64,000 nt of DNA from Clostridia bacterium. GTDB taxonomy: Bacteria; Bacillota; Clostridia; TANB77; CAG-508. The stretch lies in NCBI GenBank assembly GCA_022794055.1, contig JAAWEA010000044.1:19006-83005 (forward strand). The letters are read 5' to 3'. Under the pieces are notes generated by a model that made no database searches, had not been told where the DNA came from, and saw only the letters and a program-made list of their open reading frames with translations. This document shows, one piece after another, positions 7,285-40,651 of this stretch (the stretch's first letter is position 1; each line of letters begins with the position of its first letter). A program made the translations under genes and the position numbers.

Positions 7285-7378
7285 TATTCTTTATTAGATT
7301 ATAAAATTTATTGCATAAAAAAAATACTTAAAATGGATTGTAAGGGTTCGAATTTAAACCACATTTTAAAGTAAATAG

Positions 7379-7627: not shown

Positions 7628-8298
7628 ATTTTCACCTCACTTTCATTATAGATATTGTAAAACAAAGTATAGTTTATTTTAACTACAATACATTTAAGTT
7701 AAATGTATAATACCTAATTTACAAAATAGGTATAAAAATGATATAATAACACTAGCAATAAAAACAAAAAGAGGTGCTATTGTATGAGCAAAAATATTAT
7801 TGATTCATTAGATAATATAAAGAAACTTATAGAAGAAGAAAACTATCAAGAAGCTATAAATTATATAGAGAAAACAAAAACAGAAATAAAAACAGGAAGA
7901 GATGTATCTAATTATATGGATAGTTTAATAAATGATTTAAAGTAGAAAAAAGTAGAAAAATGTCGAACCTTAAAATGTAATTGTGATAAGGAATATCTAT
8001 GTTAATACCTAACACACAGTATAGTTATTTTTATTTACATAATTTGGTATAATATATAAAGAGATATCTTAAATCTAAATTCATAAGGAGGTTCAATATG
8101 AAATTAAATATATTAGATAAAATGTTATTATATATATTAAAAAAATATTCATATAAAATATATAGGCGTGGGGTACAAGATGGATTTAATTGGAACAATA
8201 AAATAAATTCACAAGGCTGTAACAAGGCTGTACCAATATTAAAAATTAAAAGAAAAGATATAAAGTGAAAAATACTAAATATAAACGGAGAGTAATGA

Positions 8299-9040
8299 AT
8301 GAGAAATATAAAATTAACAATAGAATATGATGGAAAAGACTTTAATGGATGGCAAAAACAGCCCGATAAATTGAATATACAAGGGACAATAGAGCAAGCA
8401 ATTAATAAAGTTACAGGAGAGGAAGTAGAATTAAATGCTTCTGGGAGAACAGATGCTGGTGTACATGCGTTACGGTCAAGTTGCAAATTTTAAAACAAAT
8501 ATGAATATACCAATTGATAAAATATCTATTGCATTAAATTCAAATCTAAAAAAATCAATTAGAATTATAAAGGCAGAAGAAGTAGAGGAAAGATTTCATA
8601 GTAGGTTAAGTTGCAAAAGAAAAACATATAGATATATTATTAATAATTCAGAATATTCATCAGCAATTTATAGAACATTAGAAACACATATTCCTCAAAG
8701 ATTAGATGTTGAAAAAATGAAGATAGCAGCTAAGTTTTTTGAAGGAGAGCATGACTTCAAGGCATTTAAATCAAGTGGAACAAGCAGTAAAAGTAGTATA
8801 AGGACTATTTACAAGGCAGATGTTAGGGAAATTGCTAATAATAGAATCTATATAGAACTCACAGGAAATGGATTTTTATATAATATGGTAAGAATTATTA
8901 GTGGTACATTAGTAGAAGTTGGCATGAATAAAATACAACCAGAGGATATAAAAGATATTATTGAAAAAAAAGATAGAAGCTTAGCAGGAAAAACATTACC
9001 ACCTCATGGATTATATCTGGTAAGTGTAGAATACCAATAA
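8299..9040 (+). pseudogene. truA: tRNA pseudouridine(38-40) synthase TruA, disrupted by +1 frameshift (single C insertion near 8472)
   Basis: ORF 8299..8493 (MRNIKLTIEYDGKDFNGWQKQ...GRTDAGVHAL) and ORF 8435..9040 (...GQVANFKTNMNIPIDK...) are the N and C parts of TruA. Removing the C in TTA-C-GGT restores GRTDAGVHALGQVANF. Confidence 0.75.
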
Positions 9041-9131
9041 TTATGTTTCAGTCTTTATTGAATTAAGAAATGTAACAAAAAGCTATTATAGGCATAAAAT
9101 ATAGAAAAGAGGAAAAAAGGAGAAAAAAATT

Positions 9132-9701
9132 ATGAATACTTTATTACTAATATTTTTTGCCTTACCTTTAGCAGTAATAATAATATCAATTGCATTACAA
9201 AAAATATTAAAATGTCCTTTTTTAGTAGCTGCAATAATATTTGCAATATTTTTAGTGGTAACTTTTATAATTGGTAATTTGATATTTTTAGTTGCTACAA
9301 TTGCTTATGCAATACTTGCATTCATAACATCAATTATAACTAATATAATCTGTAAAATAATAAGAAAATTAGATGAAAGTGGATGTAAAAGGGAAAGAGA
9401 ATGTTGCTCAAATAGAAGAAATAATGATATTTCTACAGAATTATTATCAATAAATGGAAGTTGTTGTAATAATAATTGTAAGGATAATAACAATTTATTA
9501 ACTATAAGCAGTAATGGATGTAATGGTGTTGAGAATGAATTATTGACTATAAATACAAATTGTAATAGAAATAATCATGGTTCTTGTTCTTGTAGTTGTA
9601 ATACATCAAATGATTCTATAGCAGTTAGGGCAAATGTATTTCCAAATAATAATGCAAATGGAAGAAGCGGAAGTTTTTGTGGATGCTTTAGAAGAAGATA
9701 A
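9132..9701 (+). CDS. membrane protein with Cys/Asn-rich repetitive C-terminal tail (unknown function)
   Basis: About 3 N-terminal TM helices, then ELLSINGSCCNNNCKDNNNLLTISSNGCNGVENELLTINTNCNRNNHGSCSCSCN with an 'LLxI(N/S)' repeat periodicity. RBS AAAAGGAG is present. Confidence 0.45.
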   Translation: MNTLLLIFFALPLAVIIISIALQKILKCPFLVAAIIFAIFLVVTFIIGNLIFLVATIAYAILAFITSIITNIICKIIRKLDESGCKRERECCSNRRNNDISTELLSINGSCCNNNCKDNNNLLTISSNGCNGVENELLTINTNCNRNNHGSCSCSCNTSNDSIAVRANVFPNNNANGRSGSFCGCFRRR

Positions 9702-9925
9702 AACAATTTAAGTTGAGTTTGAAAATCTTTTATATTTGCAATAAGTAGAATTTTAATAGCTTATTTAAAAAGGAAAAGTCCTTTTTAAGTAGGCTGTTTG
9801 AATAAGAATGGGAGTATAGTTATAGTAGTATTGTTTAGGGACTTGCAAATTCATGGATTTTATGCTAAACTAAAAAACAAGGCACTAATTAACGATATTA
9901 AAGTGTTTTAAAAGGAAGAAAAAAT

Positions 9926-10786
9926 ATGTTAGAAATTGTACAAGATACTCTAATAGATGCTATAAAATTATTACCATTTTTATTTATTACATATTTAATT
10001 ATGGAATATATAGAGCATAAAATGGGGAAAAAGTCCAAAAAAGCAATAAAAAAGGCTGGAAAGTTAGGACCAGTTATAGGAAGTATTTTAGGAATATTTC
10101 CACAATGTGGTTTTTCAGTTTCTGCAACAAATCTTTATGCTGGACGAGTTATAACATTAGGAACACTAATTGCAGTATATTTATCAACTTCTGATGAAAT
10201 GTTACCAATTTTTATATCAGAGTCAATTTCAGCTATAGTTATTTTAAAGATTTTAGGAATAAAATTATTAATAGGTATTTTTATTGGTCTCCTAATAGAT
10301 GTAATTTTAAATATTATTAATAAAAATAAAGAAATACAAGAAAATCAAATAGAATTTATGTGTGAGGAAGAACATTGTCATTGCAATCAAAATGGAATTT
10401 TTAAATCAGCTTTGATACATACTTTAAGCATATTTTTATATATAATAATTATTACATTCATAATAAATATAGTAGTACATTTTGTAGGAGAAGACAGAAT
10501 AGCAAGTTTTGTATTGAATAGAAAAATATTAGGACCAATAATTGCAGGAGCTGTAGGATTAATTCCTAATTGTGCATCATCTGTTATTATTACAAATTTA
10601 TATTTAGGAAATGTTATATCATTAGGAAGTATGATGTCAGGACTATTAACAGGAGCAGGGGTTGGACTGGCAGTATTATTTAAGTCAAATAACAAGATAA
10701 AAGAAAATATGTTGATTATTATATTATTGTATGGAATTGGAGTTATTTCTGGAATATTAATGGAATTAATAGGTTTTGCAATATAA
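9926..10786 (+). CDS. two-repeat polytopic permease with conserved Cys motifs (ArsP_2/DUF2899-like putative exporter)
   Basis: Internal duplication: each half carries a '(F)PQCGFS' / 'PNCASS' motif. There are 8 to 10 TM segments. Confidence 0.5.
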   Translation: MLEIVQDTLIDAIKLLPFLFITYLIMEYIEHKMGKKSKKAIKKAGKLGPVIGSILGIFPQCGFSVSATNLYAGRVITLGTLIAVYLSTSDEMLPIFISESISAIVILKILGIKLLIGIFIGLLIDVILNIINKNKEIQENQIEFMCEEEHCHCNQNGIFKSALIHTLSIFLYIIIITFIINIVVHFVGEDRIASFVLNRKILGPIIAGAVGLIPNCASSVIITNLYLGNVISLGSMMSGLLTGAGVGLAVLFKSNNKIKENMLIIILLYGIGVISGILMELIGFAI

Positions 10787-10833
10787 AAAATGGTGATAGA
10801 TTTTAATAACTATCACCATTTATATTTTGTTAA

Positions 10834-10872
10834 AAAAGAGGGAATTTTTGTCCTGGACCCCAAATCCCTTTT
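10834..10872. repeat. solo/mini copy of the GGGTCCAGGAC palindromic repeat family
   Basis: AAAGAGGGAATTTTTGTCCTGGACCCCAAATCCCTTTT matches one arm of the larger elements. It lies between the convergent permease and ATPase genes. Confidence 0.6.
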
Positions 10873-10875
10873 GAT

Positions 10876-13197
10876 TTATTTTTTCTTTTTAAAGTTTACA
10901 ACTATTGCATCTTCATTATCAAATAAATAATTTGAATCTGTTATGTCGGTTTGAATTGGGTTAATTTCATCTTTTTCATCTTTAAAATCAATATTTTTTA
11001 AATTGAATTTTTTCTTTTGCTGCATATCATTATTGGATTTAGTTGATGTTATTACACCATCTGAATATTTTCCAAAATCATAAGATTTTATTTTTTGTGG
11101 TTCTTTATACTTTGATTCTAGATAGTTAAGTCTACCTAATCCAACCATAGGCTTACCATTTTCACCTCTTACTTTATATCCACAGTCTTTAGTAGAAAGT
11201 GTTTGCAATTTTCCAGGTTTAAAATAAGGAACAAATGCCCATTTAATACCATTATATTTAGGTTCCATTTCAAGAGTATCTGTTTTAATATTTTCAGTAT
11301 ATGTCCATTCCCTTTTTTGTCCAAATTCATTACTCCACCACTCTAGTTCATCTATACTACCATGACCTGTAAAGATTTTACTAGCACAATTTGATAGAAT
11401 TGTCTGTTTTAGTTTTTCTTTTTCTTTTGAATTTCCTAATTGCTCTAAGTTTTGAGCTGAAATTGTAGTACCTATTTTATATTTACGATACATAGTAAAT
11501 ATTGGTTCAGTAGCACTGCATATAAAATCTGGAAACTCATCAATATATAAAAAGTTTGGGACTCTAGATTTTTCAGTTCCAGGTCTTCTAAGAACTGCAT
11601 TTTGCATTGAAATTAAGAAGAATAATCCAAATGCTCTATGACTAGATTGTCCTAAATCACCACGTCTAGTACAAACAAATATAATATCTCCATTTTCAAG
11701 CATTTTATCAAAGTCTATATTTTGATGACGATTACATAAAATAGTTTTTACACCAGGTATTCTTAATAATTTATCTAATTGACTTATAATGATATCAATA
11801 TATCTTTCTGTATTTGCTCTTCCAGAACCAGTTTTATAAAAGTTTTTTCTAAAATAAGAAATTTGTGTAGAATATTTTTCTTTTAAATCTTCATCATGAG
11901 CTAGAATTTCACACATTTTTTCTACTAAATCAAAATTCGTAAACATTTTTAACATATCTTCTAAATTTGGTAAAAGTCCATCATTCATTTTTGGATACAT
12001 TTCTTTTAATAAAAGTGAAATGTTCTCAATTGCTTGCATTACAACAGATTCACGGTAAGACTCTTCTGTTTCATCATTAGAGATTGCAAACATTGTTTTT
12101 AGAATTGATGAAATGTTAATTGCAATTTTATTAGCATCATCATAAACAAAAGGATTTAAACCAATAGAACTTTTATCAGCTGGATCTATGATTTTATAGT
12201 CTAATCCAAAATTTTTACAAACAGATATCATGTCTGTTGAAATTTCTTTATCTGGAGACATAACTGTAATACCACAATTTTTATAAGTAATGTCAGAAGA
12301 GCTGTCTAAAATCATTTTTTTCATATATCCTTTGTAGACTTCTTCTTTACCAGTTGTTGGAATTAACATGTTTAAATTAAAATTTTTGTTTAAATAGTCA
12401 TTATCATAAGGGGCATTTAAACTTGCAATTCTAGTTTTTAAAGCAGTATATCCCATTTCTTTTGCAATCTCACGAAAGAAAAATTTTTTTTCTAAATCTC
12501 TCGCAATTAAAGGTTCAAAAACTAAAGATGTTTTTCCAGAACCAGATCCTCCACATACAAACATTGATTGGTATCTAGATGCTTCAGGTATAGTAATCAT
12601 TTTTGCAGTTTCAAAATCTTGACATAAGAATACTTCACAAGTATATGGACCATGACCAGATTTTTTATCAGATAAATCAATTCCACCATAATCCCAAATA
12701 GAACGAACTCTAAGATCATTGTCTTGAACATCATAATATAAGTAATCAAATACTTTAGGAAATAAAATTAGAGGAAATATAAGTGTTAATGAAGTAAGAG
12801 CAGGTCTAATTAAATTTGAGAAATCAGTTATTAGTTCTACATATCCTGGATTTGAAATTAGTAATAACCAAGCTCCCATATTAATCCACTGAGTAAACAT
12901 AGAGACAACTATAGAAGCTAATGCAATCATATACACATAGAAAAATGTTACTTTTTGTTTTTTATTTTTTGAAAATTCAGATGATGGAGAAAATGCAAAA
13001 GCAAATGCTGGACATGCTATTGCAAGTGTATATTGTATTGGTCCCCAATAAGAGTATGATACACCAGTAAATAACATTAATAACATCTCAACAATACGAT
13101 CAACTGCTAAATAAATAGTAATTAATGTTAAGATGTATGTAACAAATGTATTTCTACTAACTCCTAATTTTTTTAAAAATTTATCTATTATTTTCAT
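10876..13197 (-). CDS. membrane-anchored P-loop ATPase, TraG/TraD/VirD4-type (type IV coupling protein-like)
   Basis: About 4 N-terminal TM helices. Walker A is VCGGSGSGKTS. The motif ITVMSPDKE...IIDPADKSSIGLNPF matches the T4CP 'DPKGE...DP...NPL' pattern. Walker B-like is LYIDEFPDF. Confidence 0.6.
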   Translation of the reverse strand: MKIIDKFLKKLGVSRNTFVTYILTLITIYLAVDRIVEMLLMLFTGVSYSYWGPIQYTLAIACPAFAFAFSPSSEFSKNKKQKVTFFYVYMIALASIVVSMFTQWINMGAWLLLISNPGYVELITDFSNLIRPALTSLTLIFPLILFPKVFDYLYYDVQDNDLRVRSIWDYGGIDLSDKKSGHGPYTCEVFLCQDFETAKMITIPEASRYQSMFVCGGSGSGKTSLVFEPLIARDLEKKFFFREIAKEMGYTALKTRIASLNAPYDNDYLNKNFNLNMLIPTTGKEEVYKGYMKKMILDSSSDITYKNCGITVMSPDKEISTDMISVCKNFGLDYKIIDPADKSSIGLNPFVYDDANKIAINISSILKTMFAISNDETEESYRESVVMQAIENISLLLKEMYPKMNDGLLPNLEDMLKMFTNFDLVEKMCEILAHDEDLKEKYSTQISYFRKNFYKTGSGRANTERYIDIIISQLDKLLRIPGVKTILCNRHQNIDFDKMLENGDIIFVCTRRGDLGQSSHRAFGLFFLISMQNAVLRRPGTEKSRVPNFLYIDEFPDFICSATEPIFTMYRKYKIGTTISAQNLEQLGNSKEKEKLKQTILSNCASKIFTGHGSIDELEWWSNEFGQKREWTYTENIKTDTLEMEPKYNGIKWAFVPYFKPGKLQTLSTKDCGYKVRGENGKPMVGLGRLNYLESKYKEPQKIKSYDFGKYSDGVITSTKSNNDMQQKKKFNLKNIDFKDEKDEINPIQTDITDSNYLFDNEDAIVVNFKKKK

Positions 13198-13700: not shown

Positions 13701-13970
13701 ATGATGATGGATACTAATATAATTACTTATTTAGCTTGTATAAGTTTTTTGTTTTTGTTTGGAAAAATATTTATTCTTCCAATTAAAAAAGTGTTAAAGT
13801 TAGTTTTAAACTCTGTATTGGGAGGAATTACTATATTTTTAATAAACTTAGTAGGAGCAATATGGGGATTCCATATTGGACTAAATTTTTATACAAGTAT
13901 TTTAATTGGGCTGTTAGGATTACCTGGTGCAGTATGTTTGGTTATTATAAAGTTGTTAATGTTTTTTTAA
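13701..13970 (+). CDS. bofA: sigma-K processing regulator BofA
   Basis: 89-aa membrane protein. GGITIFLINLVGAIWGFHIGLNFYTSILIGLLGLPGAVCLVIIKLLMF matches the BofA pattern GG..L..VN..GG..G.H.P.N......GILGIPG. Confidence 0.6.
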   Translation: MMMDTNIITYLACISFLFLFGKIFILPIKKVLKLVLNSVLGGITIFLINLVGAIWGFHIGLNFYTSILIGLLGLPGAVCLVIIKLLMFF

Positions 13971-14119
13971 AAGAGAAAATGGAGAGAAAGAGGGAAAAAG
14001 GGTCCAGGACAAAAAATCCCTCTTTTCTATTTCATTATCTTAAATCTTAAAAAAAGATAAAAATTAAGAGGGATTTTTTGTCCTGGACCCTTTTTCCCTC
14101 TTTCTCTTCATTTTCTCTT
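13971..14119. repeat. palindromic intergenic repeat element, copy 1 (about 150 bp, near-perfect ~50-nt arms)
   Basis: Arms AAGAGAAAATGGAGAGAAAGAGGGAAAAAGGGTCCAGGACAAAAAATCCCTCTT / AAGAGGGATTTTTTGTCCTGGACCCTTTTTCCCTCTTTCTCTTCATTTTCTCTT around a loop TTCTATTTCATTATCTTAAATCTTAAAAAAAGATAAAAATT. Confidence 0.85.
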
Positions 14120-14181
14120 TTAAGATATTGCAATAAATTTTTTTTAGTAGTAAAATACTTAAAAAAGGAGAAAATTTAATT

Positions 14182-14910
14182 ATGAAATTAAAATTTATTG
14201 GAACAGGATCTATCTCTGACATACCTAATAGTGCTAGTGTACTAGTAAATGAACATATATTATTTGATATTCCAAATGGAAATTTAAAAGCAATGGTAAG
14301 ACAAAAAGTGAATATATTAAAAATAGATACTTTAATAATTTCACATACACATGCTGATCATTGCTTTGATATACCTTTTCTTTTATGGTACAAGAAAAAC
14401 TACAAAAAGGATAAAGAAGAATTATCAACAAGAATTATTACAGATAAAATTACACAAAATACAGTAGAAATTTTAATGAATTTATCACATTTTAATTCTG
14501 CAAGAAATGCTAAAAAGGAATACATAGATGTAGAAGAAGTAAATAGTATAGGAAGGATATGTGATGATGTACAAATATTAAATGTGCCAGTAAAACATAA
14601 ATCAATCAAATATGCTAATGGATATATTATAAAAGATGAAAAAATAAGCATTGGATTAACAGGAGATTCAGCCTTCTGTGAAGGTGTAAAAGAATTAGCA
14701 AGTAAAGTTGATTATTTAATTTCTGATATGACATTAGAAGTAGGAGATAATTCACATATGGGAATAGATAATATATTAGAATTGTTAAAAGATTATCCAA
14801 AATTGAAAATTATCCCTATACATATGCATGATGAAACGAGAGAAAAAGCACTAAATCTAAATATAGATAATTTGATTTTATTAAAGGATGGAGATATTTT
14901 AGAATTATAA
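14182..14910 (+). CDS. MBL-fold metallo-hydrolase
   Basis: HxHxDH motif (ISHTHADHCFD) and a later conserved His (IPIHMHDE). 242 aa. Confidence 0.65.
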   Translation: MKLKFIGTGSISDIPNSASVLVNEHILFDIPNGNLKAMVRQKVNILKIDTLIISHTHADHCFDIPFLLWYKKNYKKDKEELSTRIITDKITQNTVEILMNLSHFNSARNAKKEYIDVEEVNSIGRICDDVQILNVPVKHKSIKYANGYIIKDEKISIGLTGDSAFCEGVKELASKVDYLISDMTLEVGDNSHMGIDNILELLKDYPKLKIIPIHMHDETREKALNLNIDNLILLKDGDILEL

Positions 14911-14919
14911 TTAAAATTA

Positions 14920-14946
14920 GCAGATGAAGTTTATCATCTGCTTTAT
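14920..14946 (+). terminator. rho-independent terminator
   Basis: GCAGATGA-AGTT-TATCATCTGC hairpin followed by TTTAT. Confidence 0.45.
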
Positions 14947-15195
14947 AGTTTATTTTAGTTGTTTATAGTGTACCATATATGTTTTTATTACATTAGTATC
15001 ATTTCATTAAAGTAAAACTATATAGATTTGGAACATTTATAGAATCAATATATATTTTTATAATTATGATATTATGAGAAAAAATTGTTAATTATATTTA
15101 TGTTATAGGAAGTATTTATGGTATTTCAAAAGCAATAACAGGATTTCCATATAATTTGATTGAATCAGAAAGCATTTCAAATAAAGTTAAAATAA

Positions 15196-15336
15196 AAAGA
15201 AAAAAAGAGGGAAAAAGGGTCCAGGACAAAAAATCCCTCTTTTCTATTTCATTATCTTAAATCTTAAAAAAAGATAAAAATTAAGAGGGATTTTTTGTCC
15301 TGGACCCTTTTTCCCTCTTTTTTTCTTCATTTTCTA
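15196..15336. repeat. palindromic intergenic repeat element, copy 2 (loop identical to copy 1)
   Basis: Same arms as copy 1 and an identical central loop. It overlaps the glmS stop codon. Confidence 0.85.
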
Positions 15337-17175
15337 TTCTACTGTAACTGATTTTGCTAGATTTCTAGGTTTATCAACATCTAATCCTTTTTCCTTAGAA
15401 ATATAATAAGAAAGAAGTTGAAGAGGTATTATTGATAAAATAGGAGAAACAAAAGAACTTGTTTTAGGTAGATTAATTACTAAATCAAACATAGTTTTAT
15501 CAATGTTTTGATTTGTAATGACTAAAGTTTTTGCTCCTCGTGTAATAACTTCTTGTATATTACTAATGGTTTTCTTTACTAAATTTTCATCAGTTAAAAT
15601 GCTAATTACAGTAATTCCATTTTCAATTAAAGCAATAGGACCATGTTTTAATTCACCTGCTGCATAACTTTCAGAATGAATGTAAGAAATTTCTTTCATT
15701 TTTAAAGAACCTTCTCTAGCAACGGTTTCATCAATGCCTCTGCCTAAGAAAAACATATCTTTTTCAAGATAGATTTGCTTTGCGAAATCTTTTATTATAT
15801 CTGTACATTTTAAAGCCTCTTCTACCTTTTTTGGGAGTTCCAAAATATTTTGTTTTAAATTTATAATTAAATTTTCATCACATACTTCTAAAATTTCAGC
15901 AAAGTAAATCGCTAATATATTTAATAAAACTACTTGAGATGTATATGCTTTAGTAGATGCTACTGCGATTTCTGGGCCTGCATGAGTATATATTGAATAG
16001 TCAGCTTCTCTAGTTATTGAACTTCCTATAACATTAGAAATTGCAAGCGTTTTAGCACCACTTTCTTTAGATAATTTTAGAGCTGCTATTGTGTCTGCCG
16101 TTTCACCAGATTGTGATATGAAAATGCACAAAGTTTTTTCATCTATAATAGGACTTCTATATCTAAATTCTGAAGCAATATCTACTTCAACTGGAATTTT
16201 GCAAAGTTTTTCAATAGCATTTTTGCAACTTAGACCTGCGTGCATAGCTGTTCCACAAGCTACAATATAAATTTTATTTATACTAGATAAATAGTCTTTA
16301 GTAAATGATAGTTCGTCAAATTGGCATTTTGAATTCAAGCTAATTCTAGCACCAATAGTTTCACGTATAGCTGTTGGTTGCTCATTTATTTCTTTTAACA
16401 TAAAATCGTCAAATCCATCTTTTTCAGCAGATGACATGTTCCACTCTATTGTTTGAGTATCTTTTGTAATTTCTTCTAAATCTTGATTATAAAACTTAGC
16501 AGAATTTCTTGTTAATACAACAAATTCTAAATCATCTAATAAATAGAAGTCTTTTGTATAAGATAAAATGGCTGGAATGTCTGAAGCTAAATATTTTTCA
16601 TCTTCACAGGTTCCTATTACTAAAGGACTGTCTTTTCTTACAACAATCATATTGTTAGGGTATAGTTTTGAAATTGCTTCAATTGCAAAACTTCCTTTTA
16701 AATCAGCACAAGTATTTTTTACTGCTCTTAAAAATTTTAAATCATCATTTTGACTATCTTTTGAATAATAATAATGAATTAAATTTGGTATAACTTCTGT
16801 ATCTGTTTCTGAATAGAAGGTATAGCCTTTTTCAGTTAAAAATGTTCTTAATTCATTGTAATTTTCTATAATTCCATTATGAACTATACTAAATGTTTTT
16901 GAGTTGTCTTGATGTGGGTGGGAGTTTTCTTTACATGGTTTTCCATGAGTAGCCCATCTTGTATGAGCAATACCAATAGTTCCCTCTAAATTATCAATTC
17001 CTTCTAAGTTGCTTAAGTTTTTAACTCTTCCTTTATCCTTCATAATAGATAAATCGTTTTTTTCAATTGTTGAAATACCTGCAGAGTCATATCCTCTGTA
17101 TTCCAATCTACTTAAGCCTGCAATTAAAATAGGGCAAGCTTTCTTATTTCCTATGTAACCTACAATTCCACACAT
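15334..17175 (-). CDS. glmS: glutamine--fructose-6-phosphate aminotransferase
   Basis: N-terminus MCGIVGYIG is the class-II glutamine amidotransferase nucleophile. Two SIS domains. The 613 aa end in ...KSVTVE. RBS GGAGGA is present. Confidence 0.95.
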   Translation of the reverse strand: MCGIVGYIGNKKACPILIAGLSRLEYRGYDSAGISTIEKNDLSIMKDKGRVKNLSNLEGIDNLEGTIGIAHTRWATHGKPCKENSHPHQDNSKTFSIVHNGIIENYNELRTFLTEKGYTFYSETDTEVIPNLIHYYYSKDSQNDDLKFLRAVKNTCADLKGSFAIEAISKLYPNNMIVVRKDSPLVIGTCEDEKYLASDIPAILSYTKDFYLLDDLEFVVLTRNSAKFYNQDLEEITKDTQTIEWNMSSAEKDGFDDFMLKEINEQPTAIRETIGARISLNSKCQFDELSFTKDYLSSINKIYIVACGTAMHAGLSCKNAIEKLCKIPVEVDIASEFRYRSPIIDEKTLCIFISQSGETADTIAALKLSKESGAKTLAISNVIGSSITREADYSIYTHAGPEIAVASTKAYTSQVVLLNILAIYFAEILEVCDENLIINLKQNILELPKKVEEALKCTDIIKDFAKQIYLEKDMFFLGRGIDETVAREGSLKMKEISYIHSESYAAGELKHGPIALIENGITVISILTDENLVKKTISNIQEVITRGAKTLVITNQNIDKTMFDLVINLPKTSSFVSPILSIIPLQLLSYYISKEKGLDVDKPRNLAKSVTVE

Positions 17176-17219: not shown

Positions 17220-17366
17220 AATACTTAATTTTATTGATTTCTGTTTTAGTATTTTTACTAATTTTTGTATCAATAATTTGACCTTAAGTAAAAGCCACTA
17301 GAGCATCCGCCGAATATTTCGATAACCCTAGACCTCGTCAACCTAAATGGTTCTGGCGCTTAGAAA
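17220..17366 (-). ncRNA. glmS ribozyme: glmS ribozyme (GlcN6P-responsive self-cleaving riboswitch) in glmS 5' leader
   Basis: The minus strand reads ...A|GCGCCAGAACCAUUUAGGUUGACGAGGUCUAGGGUUAUCGAAAUAUUCGGCGGAUGCUCUAGUGGC... The AGCGCCAGAAC cleavage-site/P1 core, GACGAGG and UUAUCGAA...UUCGGCGGAUGC are canonical glmS ribozyme elements. A P4-like stem UUAUUGAU/AUCAAUAA lies downstream. Confidence 0.85.
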
Positions 17367-17632
17367 TTAACTCCTTTCTTATAAATTTTTTGCATATTTC
17401 AATTTGTATATTATATTACTATAAATGATAAAAATGTGCAAGTACAATAACTGATATTACAAGAAAAATTTCGATTTTTTTCTATACAAGTACAAAAGGG
17501 GAATGATTGAAATTTTTAGACATTTTAGATAACTTACATGCCCTGTTTTTGTTCGCCTGTCAATTTTATGTAAGTAAAATTATATAGAATTATCTATGTT
17601 ATAGGAAAATCTTTTATTTTTTTTATAACACG

Positions 17633-34373: not shown

Positions 34374-34622
34374 ATGGAAATAGTAAGAACAATTATAACA
34401 ATTATATATTTTTTAATAGCTTTTGCAGTTATCATAATAGCTTTAACAACTTCTAAAGATGATGCTGCTTTATCTTCAACAATAACAGGATCTTCAACTA
34501 ATAATTTTTATGAGAAAAATAAAGGCAAAACAAGAGAAGGAAAACAAAAAAGATTGATGATAACATTATCTATTATTTTTGCCATATTAACAGTAGCTTT
34601 AGGAATTTTATATTTAGCATAA
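34374..34622 (+). CDS. secG: preprotein translocase subunit SecG
   Basis: 82 aa: TM helix, then SKDDAALSSTITGSSTNNFYEKNKGKTREGKQKRLMITLSIIFAILTVALGILYL, then a second TM helix. This is the SecG pattern (GKSAGLSGAISGG...LFGK.K.RG.D..L.R.T). rnr lies downstream as in B. subtilis. Confidence 0.6.
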   Translation: MEIVRTIITIIYFLIAFAVIIIALTTSKDDAALSSTITGSSTNNFYEKNKGKTREGKQKRLMITLSIIFAILTVALGILYLA

Positions 34623-34626
34623 TAAA

Positions 34627-34653
34627 AAAGAAAGTAGAACTACTTTCTTTTTT
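34627..34653. terminator. bidirectional rho-independent terminator
   Basis: AAAAAAGAAAGTAGAACTACTTTCTTTTTTAT. Confidence 0.5.
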
Positions 34654-34690
34654 ATATTATAGATTTTATTTATCAACTAATTATGAGTTT

Positions 34691-35791
34691 TTAATTATTT
34701 ATAACTTTTTTTGTTGCTTCAATTTTTATATTAGTATATTTAACTACGTCTTTTATTACTAATTTTTGAATTGCTGATATTAGTAATTCAATTGTAGTAT
34801 AATCAATTTCATTATCTATCACAGGAACAGCTAATAATTGATTATTTATGACATTTTCGTTAAAGCTCGATGCTCCCCAGCTAAATGTTTTAAATGATTT
34901 TGCCATACTTGTAATAAAATATAATGCTCTTTTTTTATTAAAATTATCATTTTTACTACATAAAACTTTTATTTTATCACCTGTAAAATAAGAGTTTTCT
35001 TGATAGAACATTGTTGCAGTATCTTGTCCAAATGAAATTGTATTACCAGGATTTAAAAATTGTTCATCTTGGTTAATATATCCCTTTATACCATTATTTA
35101 ATGCTGTTCTAACAACATATGGATGTCCTATATTTTCAGTTATATTTACTTTATTAGCATCAAATCTTTTTTTGGAAGAATTGACATAAAATAAATCATT
35201 GATTTTAAATTCATCTAAATACATAGTTTCAAAATTATTTAAAATATTATTTTCTTCTTCTGTTAATTCATAGTTTTTTAAACCAGTAACATTCAAATAT
35301 TTTTCTAGTTCAGTGACACGCTGAATTTCTAACTCGGCGACATGTTGAGTTTCTAACTTGGCAACAAAGTTCTCTATAAATTCAAAATCAATTTTTCCTT
35401 TTTTCATTGGAATTTTAACTTCATAATTTTTTATATCTTCTAATTTATATCCTCCCTGTTGTCCATCATATAATGACACAAATTTTTTAATTAAAGTTAC
35501 AAAATAATAAGCAATTTGTTTATTCCATTTTTCTATTGTGGACTTTGGTGTTAGTTTATTTATATTTTGTGAGCAATAATATTCTTCTTCCTGATATTTA
35601 ACATACTTATAATTACCAATTACTGTTGCTGTAATTGTATTGGGTTCATTTGGTGGAAAGTTTCTTCTATCAATTTTTCCTTGTATTCCATTATTTGAAA
35701 AAGTTCGCCCAACAAAATTAATTCCATTTTTCACAAATGTTATTGCATTACTATCTAGTGATTTCGTTCCAACAATTTCAAATAAATCCAT
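34691..35791 (-). CDS. restriction-modification specificity (S/HsdS-like, BcgIB-like) subunit
   Basis: 366 aa with two target-recognition-like halves separated by a conserved coiled-coil spacer (LEIQRVTELEKYLNVTGLKNYELTEEEN). It lies immediately downstream of the nuclease-methyltransferase gene. Confidence 0.65.
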   Translation of the reverse strand: MDLFEIVGTKSLDSNAITFVKNGINFVGRTFSNNGIQGKIDRRNFPPNEPNTITATVIGNYKYVKYQEEEYYCSQNINKLTPKSTIEKWNKQIAYYFVTLIKKFVSLYDGQQGGYKLEDIKNYEVKIPMKKGKIDFEFIENFVAKLETQHVAELEIQRVTELEKYLNVTGLKNYELTEEENNILNNFETMYLDEFKINDLFYVNSSKKRFDANKVNITENIGHPYVVRTALNNGIKGYINQDEQFLNPGNTISFGQDTATMFYQENSYFTGDKIKVLCSKNDNFNKKRALYFITSMAKSFKTFSWGASSFNENVINNQLLAVPVIDNEIDYTTIELLISAIQKLVIKDVVKYTNIKIEATKKVINN

Positions 35792-35844
35792 CAGTCTATA
35801 TTCGCCCCACTCAACATTATTTAACTTTTCGTTAAGTGAGGCAT

Positions 35845-37893
35845 CTATTTTCCCAAGCGATTATCCTCATTACTCGAATTTTTTAATACATTAGTTACTT
35901 CCCAATCTAAATATTCACGTACAGTTTTTTTAAAATCTTCTAATGTAGGTTTTGTATCAACTGGGGCAGTCTGATTCCAATCTGCTCCATTTTCTGGATC
36001 AATAGTACCTTCATAATATTCTTGTTCAGTCAAATAATTTAATTTTGATTTTCCAAATCTTACTAAATCAACTACTTCTTCATATCTTTCTTTAGCATTA
36101 TTTGTATCTTTCAAGTTGTTACTTGCTTTCTTTCTATTTGTACGTGTATATCCATCATTTGAAAAATCTATAAATTTAACAGGATCATCCTTTTGATGTG
36201 CTTCTCCAACTCTAAAAACATATATACTTGTCTGAACACTTGATTTTCCAACAAATAAGTCTATTGGCATTTTTATACTTGCTAAAAGAGAACTATGTTT
36301 TAATATTTTTTTATTGTATTCTGTTGCTTTTCCAGAACCTGCTGAATTTTGAATAATTATTGCAGCATAACCTTTATCCATCATTGATAAAGCTTTTTCA
36401 ACAAATATCATTCCATTTCCTTGTGCAGAATATGGGGGATTTAATACAAATGCTGTTGCTGGAAACTTTTCATTAGTATTGCCAAAACCATAGTTTCCAT
36501 TAAAGTCGATTAAGGAGTCTTTATTGATAATGTTAGAACTACCATCTCCCATTAAAATCATATTTAATATAGCTAACATATACACACTTGGTAAAATTTC
36601 AATCCCTAAAATTTGAGTTGCTTTTATTTTTGCTACTTTAAGTGATAATTCATCTGGAGACTTTATTTTATCTTTTGCATCTATTAACATTTCATTCATT
36701 GCTGCTACTAGTAAGCCTGCTGAACCAGTTGCAAAATCCCATACAAAAGAATCTTTATCTACTCTTGCAAGTTTTACAAGTAATGTTGCTATATAAGATG
36801 GAGTTAAAACAACATCATTTAATTTATCTTGAGTAAATCCAAGCCAATTATACATTTCATTAAATAATTTTCCTGTAAAATCTGTTGTTAAGCCAATTTT
36901 ATAATATATTCCCAAATCATCTATAATTTTAGAGAATACTCTTTTTAATTGACTTTCTCCATTTGTTACTTTGTTAATATTATCTGTTGTTAATGTATTT
37001 TTTAATGTTCTTATAATAAGTTCTTTTTTATCAATTGGTAATTGTTTTTTATTTAAAAAACTTTCTATCTTTCTTATAACAATATCACCATCTCTATAAC
37101 CTTCTTCTGTTGATGAGATTAAATCAGATTTTTCAAGAGGTTGTACTTCTCCTGGTATACCAATTGTAGCAATAATTGAAGCTGCTACTAGATAAACTCT
37201 GTCATTTTCTCCAAGTCCTTTTTCGTTTTGATAAATGTCATTATTAAGTTTTACTAAACTAGCATCAATTTCTTTTTCTCTTTTTTCCTTTAATTGTTCA
37301 AGTTCTTCTTGTGTTAAGTGCAAATTTCTAACTTTTTGTATAAATTCATCAAAGTTACTTTCTTTCAAGAAAGATAAATCTGTGTAGTCATCTACTTTTT
37401 GACCAATTCCCAAGTTGTCTTTTGAAACATAATATACTCCTATTTCAGGTATTACATTGTTATTATCATCTTTGTATCCAGTTACTCCAATAGATATAAT
37501 ATCAGTATAACTTGTATAATGAAGTAAAGCATTAGCATAGTGTACAGCACCATTTACAGCATAAGAATTAATATTTTTTAATATTGGCTCATTTTTATCT
37601 GTTCTATTATCAACTTGTCCATTACTATTTAGTTTTACTAATTTATCTTTATATCCTTTATATTCAATCAATATTGGATATTGTTTTAAAGTTGTTTTAT
37701 CTTGTAATAACAGTTTTACATCTGGACGATTTCCACCTTTTCCACCACTTTTTGAATAATATTCATTAAGGGCTGTATCTATTTCACTATTTAATGTTTC
37801 TTGTTCTAATTTATAATCTAACTTATATGACTTTAACCAACCATTTACTAAATCTGCGACCATTGGTTCTATTGATTGTACATGCTTTACCAT
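35845..37893 (-). CDS. Type IIB (BcgI-like) restriction-modification enzyme A subunit: N-terminal PD-(D/E)xK nuclease fused to gamma-class N6-adenine DNA methyltransferase
   Basis: Methyltransferase motif I is VWDFATGSAGLL and motif IV is VLNPPYS. The N-terminal region has a candidate PD...ExK (GGNRPDVKLLLQD...YPILIEYKGY). 682 aa. No HsdR is nearby. Confidence 0.7.
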   Translation of the reverse strand: MVKHVQSIEPMVADLVNGWLKSYKLDYKLEQETLNSEIDTALNEYYSKSGGKGGNRPDVKLLLQDKTTLKQYPILIEYKGYKDKLVKLNSNGQVDNRTDKNEPILKNINSYAVNGAVHYANALLHYTSYTDIISIGVTGYKDDNNNVIPEIGVYYVSKDNLGIGQKVDDYTDLSFLKESNFDEFIQKVRNLHLTQEELEQLKEKREKEIDASLVKLNNDIYQNEKGLGENDRVYLVAASIIATIGIPGEVQPLEKSDLISSTEEGYRDGDIVIRKIESFLNKKQLPIDKKELIIRTLKNTLTTDNINKVTNGESQLKRVFSKIIDDLGIYYKIGLTTDFTGKLFNEMYNWLGFTQDKLNDVVLTPSYIATLLVKLARVDKDSFVWDFATGSAGLLVAAMNEMLIDAKDKIKSPDELSLKVAKIKATQILGIEILPSVYMLAILNMILMGDGSSNIINKDSLIDFNGNYGFGNTNEKFPATAFVLNPPYSAQGNGMIFVEKALSMMDKGYAAIIIQNSAGSGKATEYNKKILKHSSLLASIKMPIDLFVGKSSVQTSIYVFRVGEAHQKDDPVKFIDFSNDGYTRTNRKKASNNLKDTNNAKERYEEVVDLVRFGKSKLNYLTEQEYYEGTIDPENGADWNQTAPVDTKPTLEDFKKTVREYLDWEVTNVLKNSSNEDNRLGK

Positions 37894-38093
37894 TTTTTAC
37901 CTCCATTATTTTATTTCTTTTCTTACATTATTATGATAATAACATAAATACTAATAATTTTCAATTTAAATAATATTTAAGTTCGGTTTGTATTTGCAAT
38001 TTTATGTAAAATTAGGTATACTTATATTTTGAAACATTGAAAAACCTTTTTTGTGGGCATAAGCCTAAAAAACTAATTAGGAGGAAGAAAGGT

Positions 38094-38366
38094 ATGAAAA
38101 GACGGATTTTACAGGCAATAACGACAATGAGTTTGTTGGTAGTTTTGGCAGTAGGTGCAAAAGCAGGTGAGATTAAAACACTTGAAAAAAGTAGAATTAA
38201 CTATACACTCTTCATGGGAAACTTGAAGCTGTATGATGAAGATGCAAAACATGTAATTTGGCGTATGAAATATGTAAAAGATATTGGAGAAACGCCACAA
38301 GGAGAGTTATTGATTCTCAAGGAAGATGGTAAATGCTATAAATTTTTAGGAAAATTCTATAATTAA
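38094..38366 (+). CDS. small secreted protein (signal peptide; hypothetical)
   Basis: ATG at 38094 after AGGAGGAAGAAAGG. Signal-peptide-like N-terminus MKRRILQAITTMSLLVVLAVGAKAGE. Confidence 0.35.
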   Translation: MKRRILQAITTMSLLVVLAVGAKAGEIKTLEKSRINYTLFMGNLKLYDEDAKHVIWRMKYVKDIGETPQGELLILKEDGKCYKFLGKFYN

Positions 38367-38382
38367 CAAGTAAACAACAGCT

Positions 38383-38412
38383 AAAAGTGCTCCCAGTGGG
38401 AGCGCTTTTGTT
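38383..38412 (+). terminator. rho-independent terminator (GC-rich)
   Basis: AAAGTGCTCCCAGTGGGAGCGCTTTTGTT. Confidence 0.5.
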
Positions 38413-38530
38413 ATGTTATAGGAAATATCAAAGATTTTTAATTATTCTCCTTTTGTTTTAGCATAAATAAAAATAATATTGTAGAATATAACTTTAAGTG
38501 GTATAATAAGAAAAACGAAAGGAAGAAAAA

Positions 38531-40651
38531 ATGTTAAACAAAGAAGACATCATATTAGAATTTATGAAAGACGAAGATTACACTCCAATGAAAGCAAAAG
38601 AAATAGCAATCATATTAGGAGTACCAAAAAAGGAATATAGCAAATTCACAGAAGCAATAAAAAAACTAGAAGAAAACTATAAAATAGCAAAAAATAAGAA
38701 AAATAGATATAGAATAATTGAAGAAAAATATATAGAAGGAATATACCGTAAAAACCAAAAGGGATTCGGCTTTGTAAAAGTAGAAGGTAGAGAAGGAGAA
38801 ATATATATATCAAAAGATAATTCATTAAGAGCATTAAATGGTGATAGAGTAATAGTAGAAATTTTAGAAGAAGAGAATAAATTAAAAAATGCAGAAGGAA
38901 AAATAAAAAAAATAATAAAACATGAAAAAGATACAGTAGTTGGAACTTTTCAAAATAGGCAAAACTTTGGATTTGTAGTGCCAGATGATAAAGCATTAGG
39001 AACTGATATTTTTATATCAAAATCAAACTTTGGAAAGGCAAGAGATGGGCATAAGGTATTAGTCAAAATAACAAAATATCCTGAAAAGGGAAAAAATGCA
39101 GAAGGAAAGATTATAGAGGTATTAGGCAGTCCAAATCAAGCTGGAGTAGATATGTTATCACTAATAAAGGAATATAATTTGCCATCAACTTTTCCAGAGC
39201 CTGTTGTAGAAGAAGCAAAAAAATATGGAAATAAAATTGACCCAAAGGATATAAAAAATAGAATAGATTGTAGAAGGCATACTATTTTTACAATCGATGG
39301 TGAGGACGCAAAAGACCTAGATGATGCAGTAAGAGTTATTAAATTAGACAATGGCAATTATAGATTAGATGTTCATATAGCAGATGTTAGTTATTATGTA
39401 AGAGAAGGCAGTTTGTTAGATAAAGAAGCACAAATAAGAGGAACAAGTATATATATGCTAAGTAGAGTAATTCCAATGCTTCCAAGAGAACTTTCAAACG
39501 GAATATGTAGTTTAAACCAAGGAGAAGAAAGATTTACACTTTCTTGCTCTATGGAAATTACGCCACAAGGAAAAACAATTTCAGTAGAAGTATATAAAGG
39601 AATTATAAATGTAGCTGAAAGAATGAATTATCATGATGTACAAAAAATATTAGATAAATCAGATGAGCAAGTATTAAAAAAATATGAAAAGTATATTAAG
39701 GATTTTGAATTGATGGCAGAACTTGCAAATATTTTAAAAACTAGAAGACTAGAACAAGGATATTTGAATTTAGACATACCAGAAAGTAAAATTGAGTTAG
39801 ATAAAGAGGGAAGGGCAATTGGTGTAGGAAAATATGAAACAAGTTTTAGCAATGAAATTATAGAACAATTTATGCTAAGTGCCAATGAAGCAATTGCAGA
39901 AAAGTTCTTTTGGCTAGAAGCACCATTTATCTATAGAGTACATGAAGATCCAGATTTAGATAAAGTAAAAGATTTAAATAAATTTTTATTTGATTTTGGT
40001 TTAAAAATAAAAATAGTAAACGAAAAAATTTATCCAACTGAAGTATCAAAAATATTAGAAGAAATTAAAGGAAAAGAAGAAGAAAGAGTAATATCTACTT
40101 TAATATTAAGAACATTGAAATTAGCTAGATATGAAGCACAAAATAAAGGACATTTTGGAATTGCAAGTAAATACTACTGTCATTTTACTTCACCAATTAG
40201 AAGATACCCTGATTTATTTATTCATAGAGTTATATCAAAATATTTAGAAGATAATTATGTAGTAGATGAAGAATGGGTAACAGATTTTAGGGAAAAGGCG
40301 GAGCAAAGGGCAAGCTCATCATCTGAAAGGGAAAAAGTTGCAACAAAGGTTGAAAGAGATAGTGAAGATTTGAAAAAGGCTGAATATATGCAAAACAAAA
40401 TTGGAGAAGAGTATGAAGGTATTGTTTCTTCTGTTACTCAATTTGGAATATTTGTTGAATTAGAAAATACAGTAGAAGGCTTAATAAGATTTGAAAATTT
40501 GGGTGATGAATATTTTATTTATGATGAAGAAAGAAAGAGATTGATTGGTGAAAGAACTAATATTACCTATAAAATTGGAGATAAGGTTAAAATCAGAGTG
40601 ATTTCTGCTAATAAGATATTAAGACAAATTGATTTTGAGATTATAGATTAG
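38531..40651 (+). CDS. rnr: ribonuclease R
   Basis: 706 aa. N-terminal HTH/cold-shock domains, RNB catalytic domain (DCRRHTIFTIDGEDAKDLDDAV) and C-terminal S1 domain (GIVSSVTQFGIFVEL). Confidence 0.95.
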   Translation: MLNKEDIILEFMKDEDYTPMKAKEIAIILGVPKKEYSKFTEAIKKLEENYKIAKNKKNRYRIIEEKYIEGIYRKNQKGFGFVKVEGREGEIYISKDNSLRALNGDRVIVEILEEENKLKNAEGKIKKIIKHEKDTVVGTFQNRQNFGFVVPDDKALGTDIFISKSNFGKARDGHKVLVKITKYPEKGKNAEGKIIEVLGSPNQAGVDMLSLIKEYNLPSTFPEPVVEEAKKYGNKIDPKDIKNRIDCRRHTIFTIDGEDAKDLDDAVRVIKLDNGNYRLDVHIADVSYYVREGSLLDKEAQIRGTSIYMLSRVIPMLPRELSNGICSLNQGEERFTLSCSMEITPQGKTISVEVYKGIINVAERMNYHDVQKILDKSDEQVLKKYEKYIKDFELMAELANILKTRRLEQGYLNLDIPESKIELDKEGRAIGVGKYETSFSNEIIEQFMLSANEAIAEKFFWLEAPFIYRVHEDPDLDKVKDLNKFLFDFGLKIKIVNEKIYPTEVSKILEEIKGKEEERVISTLILRTLKLARYEAQNKGHFGIASKYYCHFTSPIRRYPDLFIHRVISKYLEDNYVVDEEWVTDFREKAEQRASSSSEREKVATKVERDSEDLKKAEYMQNKIGEEYEGIVSSVTQFGIFVELENTVEGLIRFENLGDEYFIYDEERKRLIGERTNITYKIGDKVKIRVISANKILRQIDFEIID

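Follow-up and report, generated by a model that had tools for sequence, protein, structure and literature searches.

How is the specificity subunit of a two-gene restriction-modification (RM) system made when its reading frame opens without a canonical start codon? The question is raised by a gene pair located between secG and rnr in a 64,000-nucleotide stretch of a Clostridia genome (contig JAAWEA010000044.1, positions 19,006 to 83,005 of the forward strand), which was analyzed as a whole and is called here the window. The first gene codes for a protein of 682 amino acids (aa), the A subunit, in which a candidate nuclease domain, a helical connector, a gamma-class N6-adenine methyltransferase and a C-terminal helix follow each other. 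The second codes for the specificity subunit, S. Both the open reading frame (ORF) of A and the flanking secG and rnr were found where an earlier reading of the sequence alone (the original prediction) had placed them (Table 1). As an RM system the pair is routine, another BcgI-like module in a gut Clostridium, and the point of interest is the junction of the two genes. There, a cassette made of a heptamer and a hairpin, together with the missing start codon of S, points by sequence comparison to a mode of S expression that has not been described. The explanation that we prefer as a whole (a BcgI-like RM system, its insertion at this place and an S subunit produced by frameshifting) has in our estimate a probability of roughly 0.6.

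The reading frame of S extends beyond its annotated start

In the original prediction, S was a protein of 366 aa with two target recognition domains (TRD1 and TRD2). The two-domain organization was recovered, with two stretches matching Pfam Methylase_S (E = 3e-33) and matches to three PADLOC models of Type II specificity subunits (Specificity_II). The 366-aa ORF (34691..35791, minus strand) exists as called, but it is an artefact of the gene caller. The true S-coding stretch has 385 codons, because the frame stays open through another 19 codons before the called ATG, and those codons specify the conserved start of TRD1, NNVEWGEYRL. The 19 codons read IDASLNEKLNNVEWGEYRL, which is a normal TRD beginning, and there is no ATG, GTG or TTG among them. 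Besides, the Methylase_S alignment of the 366-aa form begins at position 11 of the profile, and positions 1-10 are supplied by the upstream codons.

The junction was surveyed in 80 loci, taken from species-representative genomes whose labels cover several phyla. The S frames were intact in nearly all of these loci, with 360-410 codons, and in 41 no canonical start was found before an invariant Trp. The position of the first canonical start was scattered among the relatives (codon 7, 8, 21, 48, 62, 105 or 118), often deep in TRD1. Codon 8 was Leu in 60 of the 61 loci whose S frame opens with ATA, all six Leu codons being used, and third positions were the most variable in five of five codons of the hairpin loop described below. 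A Leu kept by six different codons and the variability of third positions indicate that the S frame is translated at its head.

These data bear directly on the simplest alternative, namely that S is translated from the annotated ATG at 35791 and that the open frame before it is an evolutionary leftover. This ATG is the first canonical start in the frame and was the choice of the gene callers in all same-species contigs. However, it is not conserved, the start that would replace it in relatives often falls inside TRD1, the 19 codons before it are under selection at the protein level, and the protein made from it would lack the first ten positions of the Methylase_S profile. We hold this alternative to be very improbable. 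The annotation of S is inconsistent elsewhere too (L121:4549, L122:4528, L123:4702): PGAP uses a CTG start in a Clostridium perfringens plasmid and an ATA start in an Arsenophonus plasmid, a phage record starts S 180 nt downstream, and metagenome gene callers cut it by 19 to more than 60 codons.

A conserved heptamer and hairpin at the junction

What we observed directly at the junction is a sequence cassette, its conservation and covariation, an open -1 frame of coding type and the lack of canonical starts. In the window, A ends in TTG GGA AAA TAG, and the S frame reads ATA GAT GCC from an ATA (35848-35846) that overlaps the stop codon TAG (35847-35845). In the survey, the codon overlapping the stop was ATA in 61 loci, ATG (as AAAATGA) in 15, GTA in 3 and ATT in 1. 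The heptamer G_GGA_AAA, directly before the stop, fits the pattern X_XXY_YYZ in the frame of A. GGGAAAA precedes the stop in 74 of the 80 loci, and the variants were A_AAA_AAA (two loci) and G_GGA_AAG (two loci plus the copy of an Escherichia coli phage). At synonymous sites of the A frame, the entropy was 0.10-0.23 bits in the heptamer versus 0.7-1.9 bits upstream. A Shine-Dalgarno (SD)-like motif is found upstream of the heptamer in 64 of the 80 loci, with a spacer of 9-10 nt in nearly all cases; it counts for little, because its TGAGGA site also encodes a conserved Glu-Asp.

The hairpin lies at the other side of the heptamer. Folding of a 91-nt region of the window gave a stem of 13 bp with -22.8 kcal/mol (z = -4.1), and none of 200 shuffled sequences was as stable. 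Over the 80 loci, 99.3% of the cells of the 12-bp hairpin were paired, compared to 33-47% when the 3' partner was slid. Four pairs showed double changes (pair 45-67, for example, is U-A in 36 loci, C-G in 29, U-G in 14 and G-C in 1), and the covariation score was reached by none of 500 shuffles. The same stem was recovered unaided by RNAalifold, and its mean stability over the loci was -19 kcal/mol. Rfam has no family at the junction.

Several other roles for these elements were considered and rejected. A mini-ORF of seven codons (ATGCCTCACTTAACGAAAAGTTAA) right after the stop of A might have served as a coupling relay; its ATG is not conserved and its positions +4/+5 are variable. Transcriptional slippage was discarded given that the run of A is only 4 nt long, and a terminator or attenuator given that no U tract follows the hairpin. 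The right arm is not kept just for coding Trp-Gly, since in one relative (L115) the arm is located two codons 5' of the Trp and in another (L118) it codes for different residues. A role in site-specific recombination was dismissed as well, since the window contains neither a recombinase nor inverted copies of hsdS. Where the module is carried by plasmids, a serine recombinase is located upstream of it, and this gene is not present in the chromosomal insert studied here. One locus, from a Roseburia metagenome-assembled genome (MAG; L038:6157-6240), has TTA instead of TAA as the stop after the heptamer, and its A frame runs eight codons further and ends in the hairpin loop. Its heptamer and hairpin are undamaged and its S frame is open, and the TTA could be a sequencing error.

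The junction in the wider family

Among five more distant relatives that we compared (L115, L116, L118, L119 and L120), the hairpin was confined to those with at least 44% identity in A. L118 (44%) has the same TTG GGA AAA TAG, followed after a 5-nt spacer by a 10-bp hairpin of unrelated sequence (CCCCGCAGG / CCUGCGGGG), and its S frame opens with ATA and lacks a canonical start. In L116 (47%), A_AAA_AAA is found in frame one codon before the stop, the hairpin has 12 bp and again a 5-nt spacer, and the start codon is a GTG buried in the stem. L115 (44%) has no heptamer; its hairpin (GCCCCCG / CGGGGGC) comes right after the stop, and its S frame shows GTA and no canonical start. Neither a heptamer nor a comparable hairpin was found in L119 (41%) and L120 (36%), where S has an ordinary ATG (TAATG and TAG TT ATG, respectively). 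The arm sequences differ in L115, L116, L118 and L123. Six loci with a hairpin were examined besides the 80 surveyed ones, and in four of these six (L118, L115, L121 and L122) the S frame begins without a canonical start. The copy of the E. coli phage reads GCG GGA AAG TAA, that is G_GGA_AAG, with GTA as overlapping codon and a 13-bp hairpin at the same spacing.

The family also contains proteins in which A and S are fused in a single frame (P0122, with 983 aa and 75% identity, and P0152, with 1098 aa), as well as fusions with half of S (P0126 and P0131). In P0122, 24 residues link the C-terminal 'LK' to the Trp of the TRD, the same number as in the product predicted for a -1 shift at the junction of the window.

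Frameshifting or reinitiation

From these comparisons we infer a frameshift, its efficiency and the assembly of its products. Judged on sequence, the odds seem to us a little better than even that S is made by programmed -1 frameshifting on the heptamer, as an A-S fusion. A fraction of the ribosomes would slip by -1 on G_GGA_AAA/G and continue into the S frame, and the hairpin, perhaps with the SD-like motif, would stimulate the slip. The expected products are a fusion of 1067 aa (121.4 kDa) beside free A (76.8 kDa), and one fusion plus one free A would give a (RM)2S stoichiometry from a single mRNA.

There are precedents for such an arrangement in dnaX and in lambda G-T. In their -1 cassettes, as in the one described here, X_XXY_YYZ is preceded at about 10 nt by an SD-like motif and followed after 5-6 nt by a stem-loop (PMC5009743). 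In both, the products share their N-terminus and are needed in a fixed ratio (PMC5009743), a likeness that for our locus is drawn by sequence comparison. The product ratio of dnaX is 1:1, and for some dnaX genes it has been proposed that the longer product comes from the shift, with the zero-frame stop directly after the site (PMC5009743). The A-site codon is a difference, being AAA in most of our loci. The predicted trans-frame product would have the order R-H-M-TRD1-CR1-TRD2-CR2 (nuclease, helical connector and methyltransferase, followed by the TRDs and conserved regions, CR, of S), which is also that of the fused P0122 and P0152. In domain order and size it resembles these fused proteins and the single-chain RMS enzymes of Type IIB (AloI, CspCI and TstI; PMC4027205). 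All of these proteins are encoded in one frame, whereas in our case free A would predominate over the fusion. An engineered fusion of M and S of the Type I enzyme EcoKI is active if extra M is supplied (PMC3510504). In the literature searched we found no report of recoding or frameshifting in any RM system, the only items returned being this EcoKI fusion paper and general reviews.

A different way to read the same junction is that S is a separate protein of 385 aa, made by ribosomes that terminate at the stop of A and reinitiate on the near-cognate ATA overlapping this stop, a codon that is ATG in some relatives. Free 30S subunits would then be barred by the hairpin, and S synthesis would be strictly coupled to that of A and lower than it. 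The 4-nt overlap ATGA, the classic arrangement for coupling, is indeed present in 15 of the 80 loci, and in EcoKI the hsdS gene lies in a different frame, overlaps the end of the M gene and is translationally coupled (PMC3510504), an overlap that is also seen here. Besides, the hairpin begins 3-4 nt past the start position and buries the GTG start of L116, PGAP places the S start of the Arsenophonus plasmid at the ATA, and the presence of heptamer and hairpin in loci of the ATG type means that these elements do not require the loss of the start. Yet, unlike in EcoKI, the overlapping codon of most relatives is a non-start and a slippery heptamer and a hairpin are present. ATA is a very poor initiator and nevertheless outnumbers ATG four to one, and the two codons can alternate between loci that are otherwise nearly the same, L083 and L084 being distinguished by ATAA versus ATGA alone. 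The loci with GTA (L097, L102, L105, L115 and L123) cannot initiate there, and three of them (L102, L115 and L123) reach the conserved Trp without any canonical start. Some 15 nt lie between the ATA and the nearest SD-like motif, more than normal initiation allows, but the distance of this motif from the heptamer is dnaX-like. Reinitiation also leaves unexplained why a heptamer is held at synonymous sites exactly 5 nt before a hairpin, even in relatives of 44-47% identity, and why the E. coli phage copy has G_GGA_AAG, the heptamer that is optimal in that host and has been called 'highly shift-prone' in E. coli (PMC5009743). It is because of these observations that frameshifting is favoured, and we consider reinitiation possible but rather unlikely.

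Several points weigh nonetheless against frameshifting. The case for it is entirely a comparative one. The 15 loci with a good ATGA start/stop overlap keep the same heptamer and hairpin, so that the cassette could be a device for translational coupling in which the hairpin blocks independent 30S entry. RefSeq/PGAP itself starts S at ATA in one record and at CTG in another. In E. coli, ribosomes slip far less readily with AAA than with AAG in the A site (PMC5009743), and it is AAA that occupies this site in most loci. The heptamer, in turn, also codes for a conserved C-terminal Leu-Gly-Lys, as the SD-like motif does for Glu-Asp, and most of the compensatory changes in the hairpin could come from a few ancestral events.

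The enzyme encoded by the pair

The motifs quoted in the original prediction were all located by coordinate: GGNRPD (P57, D58), IEYK (E77, K79), DFATGSAGLL (386-395) and NPPY (485-488). Nuclease and methyltransferase motifs stand on one chain, as had been claimed, and this chain is covered over residues 3-673 by the PADLOC model PDLC03616 (Type IIG restriction enzyme-methyltransferase, REase_MTase_IIG) with E = 5e-244 and 810 bits. No variation was seen at D58, E77, K79, D386, G390, N485 and P487 in an alignment of 21 homologues with identities as low as 29%. Another PADLOC model of Type IIG, with 637 positions and so of the same length as BcgI.RM, gave E = 1e-38, and the models of Type I methyltransferases only E = 1e-22 and 79 bits. 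Residues 344-605 correspond to Pfam N6_Mtase (E = 3e-20) and residues 28-86 gave a sub-threshold match to Pfam VRR_NUC. A profile built from the alignment of the 21 homologues found in the Protein Data Bank (PDB) the M subunits of StySJI (1.7e-20), EcoKI and EcoR124 and also RM.BsaXI (1.4e-6), while single-sequence phmmer searches of the PDB with A and with S gave no match. The match to the MAD2 methyltransferase of MADS (NCBIfam) was rejected, as its 38 bits against a cut-off of 720 bits reflect the similarity shared by methyltransferase cores.

The AlphaFold model of full-length A has a mean predicted local distance difference test (pLDDT) of 83.4 and a predicted template modelling score (pTM) of 0.74. 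The nearest structures are HsdM proteins, to which the methyltransferase half is closest, and the model can also be aligned with the RM chains of BsaXI (Type IIB), BpuSI and DrdV (both Type IIG) along 670-745 columns. The C-terminal helix, which would be the part of A that contacts S, comprises residues 651-676 of the model. The published description of BcgI-type 'RM + S' enzymes is in keeping with this: an R-H-M protein whose methylase resembles that of EcoKI and which ends in a single C-terminal helix (PMC11997821). The locus is very probably a BcgI-type RM module, ATP-independent and composed of two genes, a kind of system for which the names Type IIB, 'Type IIG with separate S' and 'RM + S' are in use; Type IIB is a class defined by double-sided cleavage, and the locus has been placed by sequence and predicted structure. 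The A-S system is an ordinary new member of a very common and already modelled RM family.

The archetype of Type IIB, BcgI, has an A of 637 aa and a B of 341 aa that form A2B (PMC3592470, PMC11997821). Shared with it are the two adjacent genes, a PD...ExK nuclease and an NPPY N6-adenine methyltransferase in one chain, a B/S with two TRDs, the absence of a translocase, and a Type I-like methyltransferase with a C-terminal helical tail (PMC3592470, PMC11997821). The A described here is 45 residues longer and its S has 385 (or 366) aa against 341. The kinship is at the level of the family only, as shown by E = 1e-38 for the model of BcgI's length against 5e-244 for A's own model. Closer in size are HpyUM032XIII and Hso63250II, described as 'BcgI-like Type IIG', with RM chains of 679 and 680 aa plus an S (PMC11997821 supplement). 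They have the same RM, Type I-like and C-terminal-tail architecture, the likeness being one of length and description, not of sequence. For HpyUM032XIII, S-dependent methylation of a bipartite site was established by methylome and cloning (PMC4450513). The S of Helicobacter pylori differs in being split by a poly-G tract (phase variation), which is another way to modulate S. One relative of A (41% identity; L119:2198-3831) has two consecutive S genes of 168 and 376 aa after A, an arrangement that recalls the split S1/S2 of HpyUM032XIII.

BsaXI, a Type IIB enzyme whose (RM)2S complex is known from cryo-electron microscopy (PDB 8w0p, 8w2p), has the same R-H-M order, a separate S and a PD-(D/E)xK site (PMC11997821), and the model of A aligns with it over 670-680 columns (E ~1e-13). 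However, its RM chain, of 916 aa, includes 'knob' and 'paddle' inserts that A does not have, and the methyltransferase of A is nearer to Type I HsdM. In the M2S complex of EcoKI, the methyltransferase is HsdM-like and its C-terminal helix packs on the conserved regions of S (PMC3510504), which is the likeness proposed for A and S. Unlike EcoKI, our system shows no HsdR in the window and no ATP-dependent translocation, and it carries the nuclease as an N-terminal extension of M. If BcgI and BsaXI are taken as models, S would read a bipartite DNA site via TRD1 and TRD2, two A chains would dock on one S and, with S-adenosylmethionine, the complex would methylate one adenine per half-site in the host DNA.

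Two alleles of S were found in the species of the window, one of 366/385 aa and the other of 352 aa (L002:7557-8615, L003 and L011). They are essentially identical from CR1 onward (CR1-TRD2-CR2) and their TRD1 are unrelated. The replacement of TRD1 between strains, the customary route to a new specificity in such systems, should change one half-site. The differences in A fall mainly within its C-terminal ~80 residues, suggesting that recombination broke close to the boundary of A and S.

Is there an HsdR?

Given that the methyltransferase half of A and the S are clearly Type I-like, the pair could supply the M and S functions of a Type I system whose genes are dispersed, with an HsdR encoded elsewhere in the genome, of which our view is 64 kb. 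As the original prediction had stated, no HsdR accompanies the pair: the nine largest ORFs of the window (TraG-like, Lon-like, GlmS, BipA, UvrC, GerA and unknowns) have no helicase or ResIII domains, and only two of them, the TraG-like and the Lon-like, exceed 750 aa. In addition, A has a conserved N-terminal domain of 175 residues with the invariant PD...ExK triad, which HsdM proteins lack, and the scores above (810 bits as a Type IIG RM fusion, 79 bits as a Type I methyltransferase) go in the same direction. We read the gene tables of more than 100 loci of other organisms, which cover several genomic contexts, and S was the sole conserved partner of A, never HsdR; the two-gene module travels alone across phyla, plasmids and phages with no adjoining HsdR. 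A dispersed Type I system is, in our opinion, extremely improbable.

The candidate nuclease domain

The N-terminal domain of A was modelled separately (residues 1-185) with a pLDDT of 94.4 and a pTM of 0.91. The order of elements is alpha-beta-beta-alpha-beta, specifically a helix 9-22 that carries E9, a strand 59-64 after P57-D58, a strand 71-78 that carries E77-x-K79, a helix 105-126 and three more strands. Foldseek gave no significant match for this isolated model in the PDB or BFVD, and a match of the domain profile to VtrA in the PDB (E = 0.11) was discarded as spurious. VRR_NUC was matched by the N-domain of 9 of 16 family members. For the PD-(D/E)xK fold named in the original prediction, these results are suggestive at most.

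It could be argued from the missing structural match that the nuclease is functionally inactive or absent, and that the pair only methylates DNA at specific sites, for an epigenetic or anti-restriction purpose; methylation was also all that was assayed in characterised relatives such as HpyUM032XIII (PMC4450513). Against this, E9, D58, E77 and K79 are invariant in homologues down to ~25-30% identity, a pattern that points to selection on catalysis, and the Glu of the PD...ExK motif of BcgI (E53), equivalent to that of A, is essential for cleavage (PMC3592470). A pure methyltransferase seems to us quite improbable.

Distribution of the module

Relatives of A were found in 478 stretches of a collection with one genome per species, and the best 80 of the 478 were 76-90% identical. 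Their labels include Clostridia, Lachnospiraceae, Oscillospiraceae, Streptococcus sp., Clostridium hydrogeniformans and a complete chromosome of Microcystis ichthyoblabe; among the MAGs, where binning errors are possible, there are further labels of Saccharibacteria, Spirochaetota and Gastranaerophilales. Neither secG nor rnr was found near A in any of the best 80 of 478. The module is also present on MOBP plasmids of C. perfringens (80%), on an Arsenophonus plasmid (76.5%) where it adjoins a serine recombinase and a Tn3 transposase, on an Acinetobacter plasmid (75%), in a human faecal phage contig (74%) and in the E. coli phage PhiR12_3 (69.5%), annotated as 'BcgI alpha chain-like'. In some loci of Lachnospiraceae and others (L020-L025, 5772-6008; L016-L018, 4927-5987), a small HTH_3/HTH_26 gene overlaps the start of A and is a possible controller protein. 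DUF4357, RhuM and TnpV genes accompany these modules, and the copy of the window has no such regulator.

Insertion between secG and rnr

The original prediction had taken the pair for an acquired islet that interrupts secG and rnr, and the comparison of this interval revealed the empty site in close relatives. In L106-L111, rnr is the next gene after secG, and only 105-150 nt separate the two. In these empty-site relatives RNase R is 96% identical (20 contigs, L106-L109) or 88% identical (L110-L111), and the whole neighbourhood is kept (YabP, YqfD, YbeY, DUF3048, YlbF, a 229-aa protein, SecG and RNase R and, past it, a 58-aa protein, GerAC, GerAB, GerA and a transglutaminase). Homology to L106 ends at position 34636 of the window and restarts at 38469. 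All same-species contigs (identical SecG or RNase R) that reach into the interval and were read have RM genes there, those of sufficient length having the whole A-S pair between secG and rnr, and the insert appears to be fixed within the species. It is almost certain that ~3.8 kb was inserted into the secG-rnr intergenic region of a low-GC, spore-forming, Clostridium-like lineage and that the module is highly mobile. The interval appears to be a recurrent integration hotspot, because relatives with an 86% identical RNase R hold a different gene at the same spot: in L112-L114 a Laminin_G_3 gene of 553-555 aa lies between secG (~3805-4053) and rnr (6001-8118). The G+C content of the region (~21-30%) is like that of its surroundings, and the GC and AT skews change sign because the A-S pair is on the opposite strand.

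Two further claims about the flanks stood in part. Of the strong terminators said to bound the insert, one was found by the scan after a small ORF, but the hairpin at the secG side, AT-rich with a 2-nt loop, was not flagged by the scan. The small secreted-protein gene exists, with 90 aa, an N-terminal signal peptide (MKRRILQAITTMSLLVVLAVGAKAGE...) and a good ribosome-binding site, but it is not part of the RM module. It belongs to a separate indel, because the same-species contig L001 lacks 37976-38468; the segment is also missing from L014 and is present in most same-species contigs. No family match was found for this ORF in Pfam, NCBIfam or PADLOC. The promoter-like site listed in Table 1 has to be seen together with the fact that consensus matches of this type are no more numerous in the region than in shuffled sequences.

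Table 1. Coordinates of the features of the A-S module and its flanks, numbered from the first nucleotide of the window.
Feature	Position	Strand	Evidence or remarks
secG	34374..34622		Pfam SecG, TIGR00810
Terminator-like hairpin between convergent secG and S	34624..34653	.	A6-GAAAGTAG-AA-CTACTTTC-T6; by eye
Inserted segment, ~3.83 kb, secG-rnr intergenic	34637..38468	.	blastn against the empty-site relative L106
S coding frame, 385 codons	34691..35848	-	From the ATA overlapping the A stop; TRD1-CR1-TRD2-CR2; ATG of the caller at 35791
Variable TRD1 region of S	35411..35773	-	Unrelated TRD1 in same-species L002, L003 and L011 (352-aa allele)
RNA hairpin	35804..35842	-	Arms 35842-35831 (GCCUCACUUAAC) and 35815-35804 (GUUGAGUGGGGC); 15-nt loop; 5 nt past the heptamer
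A subunit (RM fusion), 682 aa, 76.8 kDa	35845..37893	-
Slippery heptamer G_GGA_AAA	35848..35854	-	A frame, directly 5' of TAG; its last A opens the S codon ATA
SD-like TGAGGA	35864..35869	-	9-10 nt 5' of the heptamer; GGAGG, GAGGA or AGGAG in 64 of 80 loci
Methyltransferase core	36430..36738	-	Motif I DFATGSAGLL (36738-36709) to motif IV NPPY (36441-36430); Pfam, alignment
Candidate PD-(D/E)xK nuclease domain, residues 1-~175	37369..37893	-	D58 37722-37720, E77 37665-37663, K79 37659-37657
Promoter-like site 5' of A	37936..37964	-	TTGAAA, 17-nt spacer, TATTAT, TG extension; consensus match
Separable 493-bp indel	37976..38468	+	90-aa signal-peptide ORF 38094-38366; strong terminator 38382-38410
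rnr	38531..40651		TIGR02063, 811 bits

Some other features of these sequences are mentioned for completeness. Downstream of rnr, the same-species contig L001 has an extra block (13872-15368) with two FGase fragments and a toxin-antitoxin pair of HepT-like and nucleotidyltransferase (MNT) type, where the window has a 70-aa ORF. Positions 88-13197 of the window look like a mobile element or prophage-like block, with an ORF similar to TraG/type IV secretion system coupling proteins (10876-13197, minus strand), a 515-aa coiled-coil protein and several consecutive ORFs on the same strand without family match. An ordinary glmS ribozyme/riboswitch (17221-17371, minus strand; Rfam RF00234, 77.6 bits) is located directly 5' of glmS (15334-17175, minus strand).

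Implications for the family

We would give even odds to the broader statement that a large and widely transferred family of BcgI-like RM systems gave up the independent initiation of S in favour of a dnaX-like -1 cassette. If S comes instead from termination-reinitiation on a non-start codon, that would likewise be an unusual mechanism of expression. If the frameshift is true, it would be the first programmed one reported within an RM system, and hundreds of genes annotated as 'restriction endonuclease subunit S' would carry wrong or invented start codons. The (RM)2S ratio of a potentially lethal enzyme would be set by the efficiency of recoding and not by two promoters or ribosome-binding sites, a simple answer to the need for a fixed 2:1 ratio of subunits when a toxic two-gene enzyme is transferred to unrelated hosts. 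Defence systems would join the short list of cellular genes that use -1 recoding, and the 'RM + S' and the single-chain 'RMS' enzymes of Type IIB would be linked via an intermediate that makes both.

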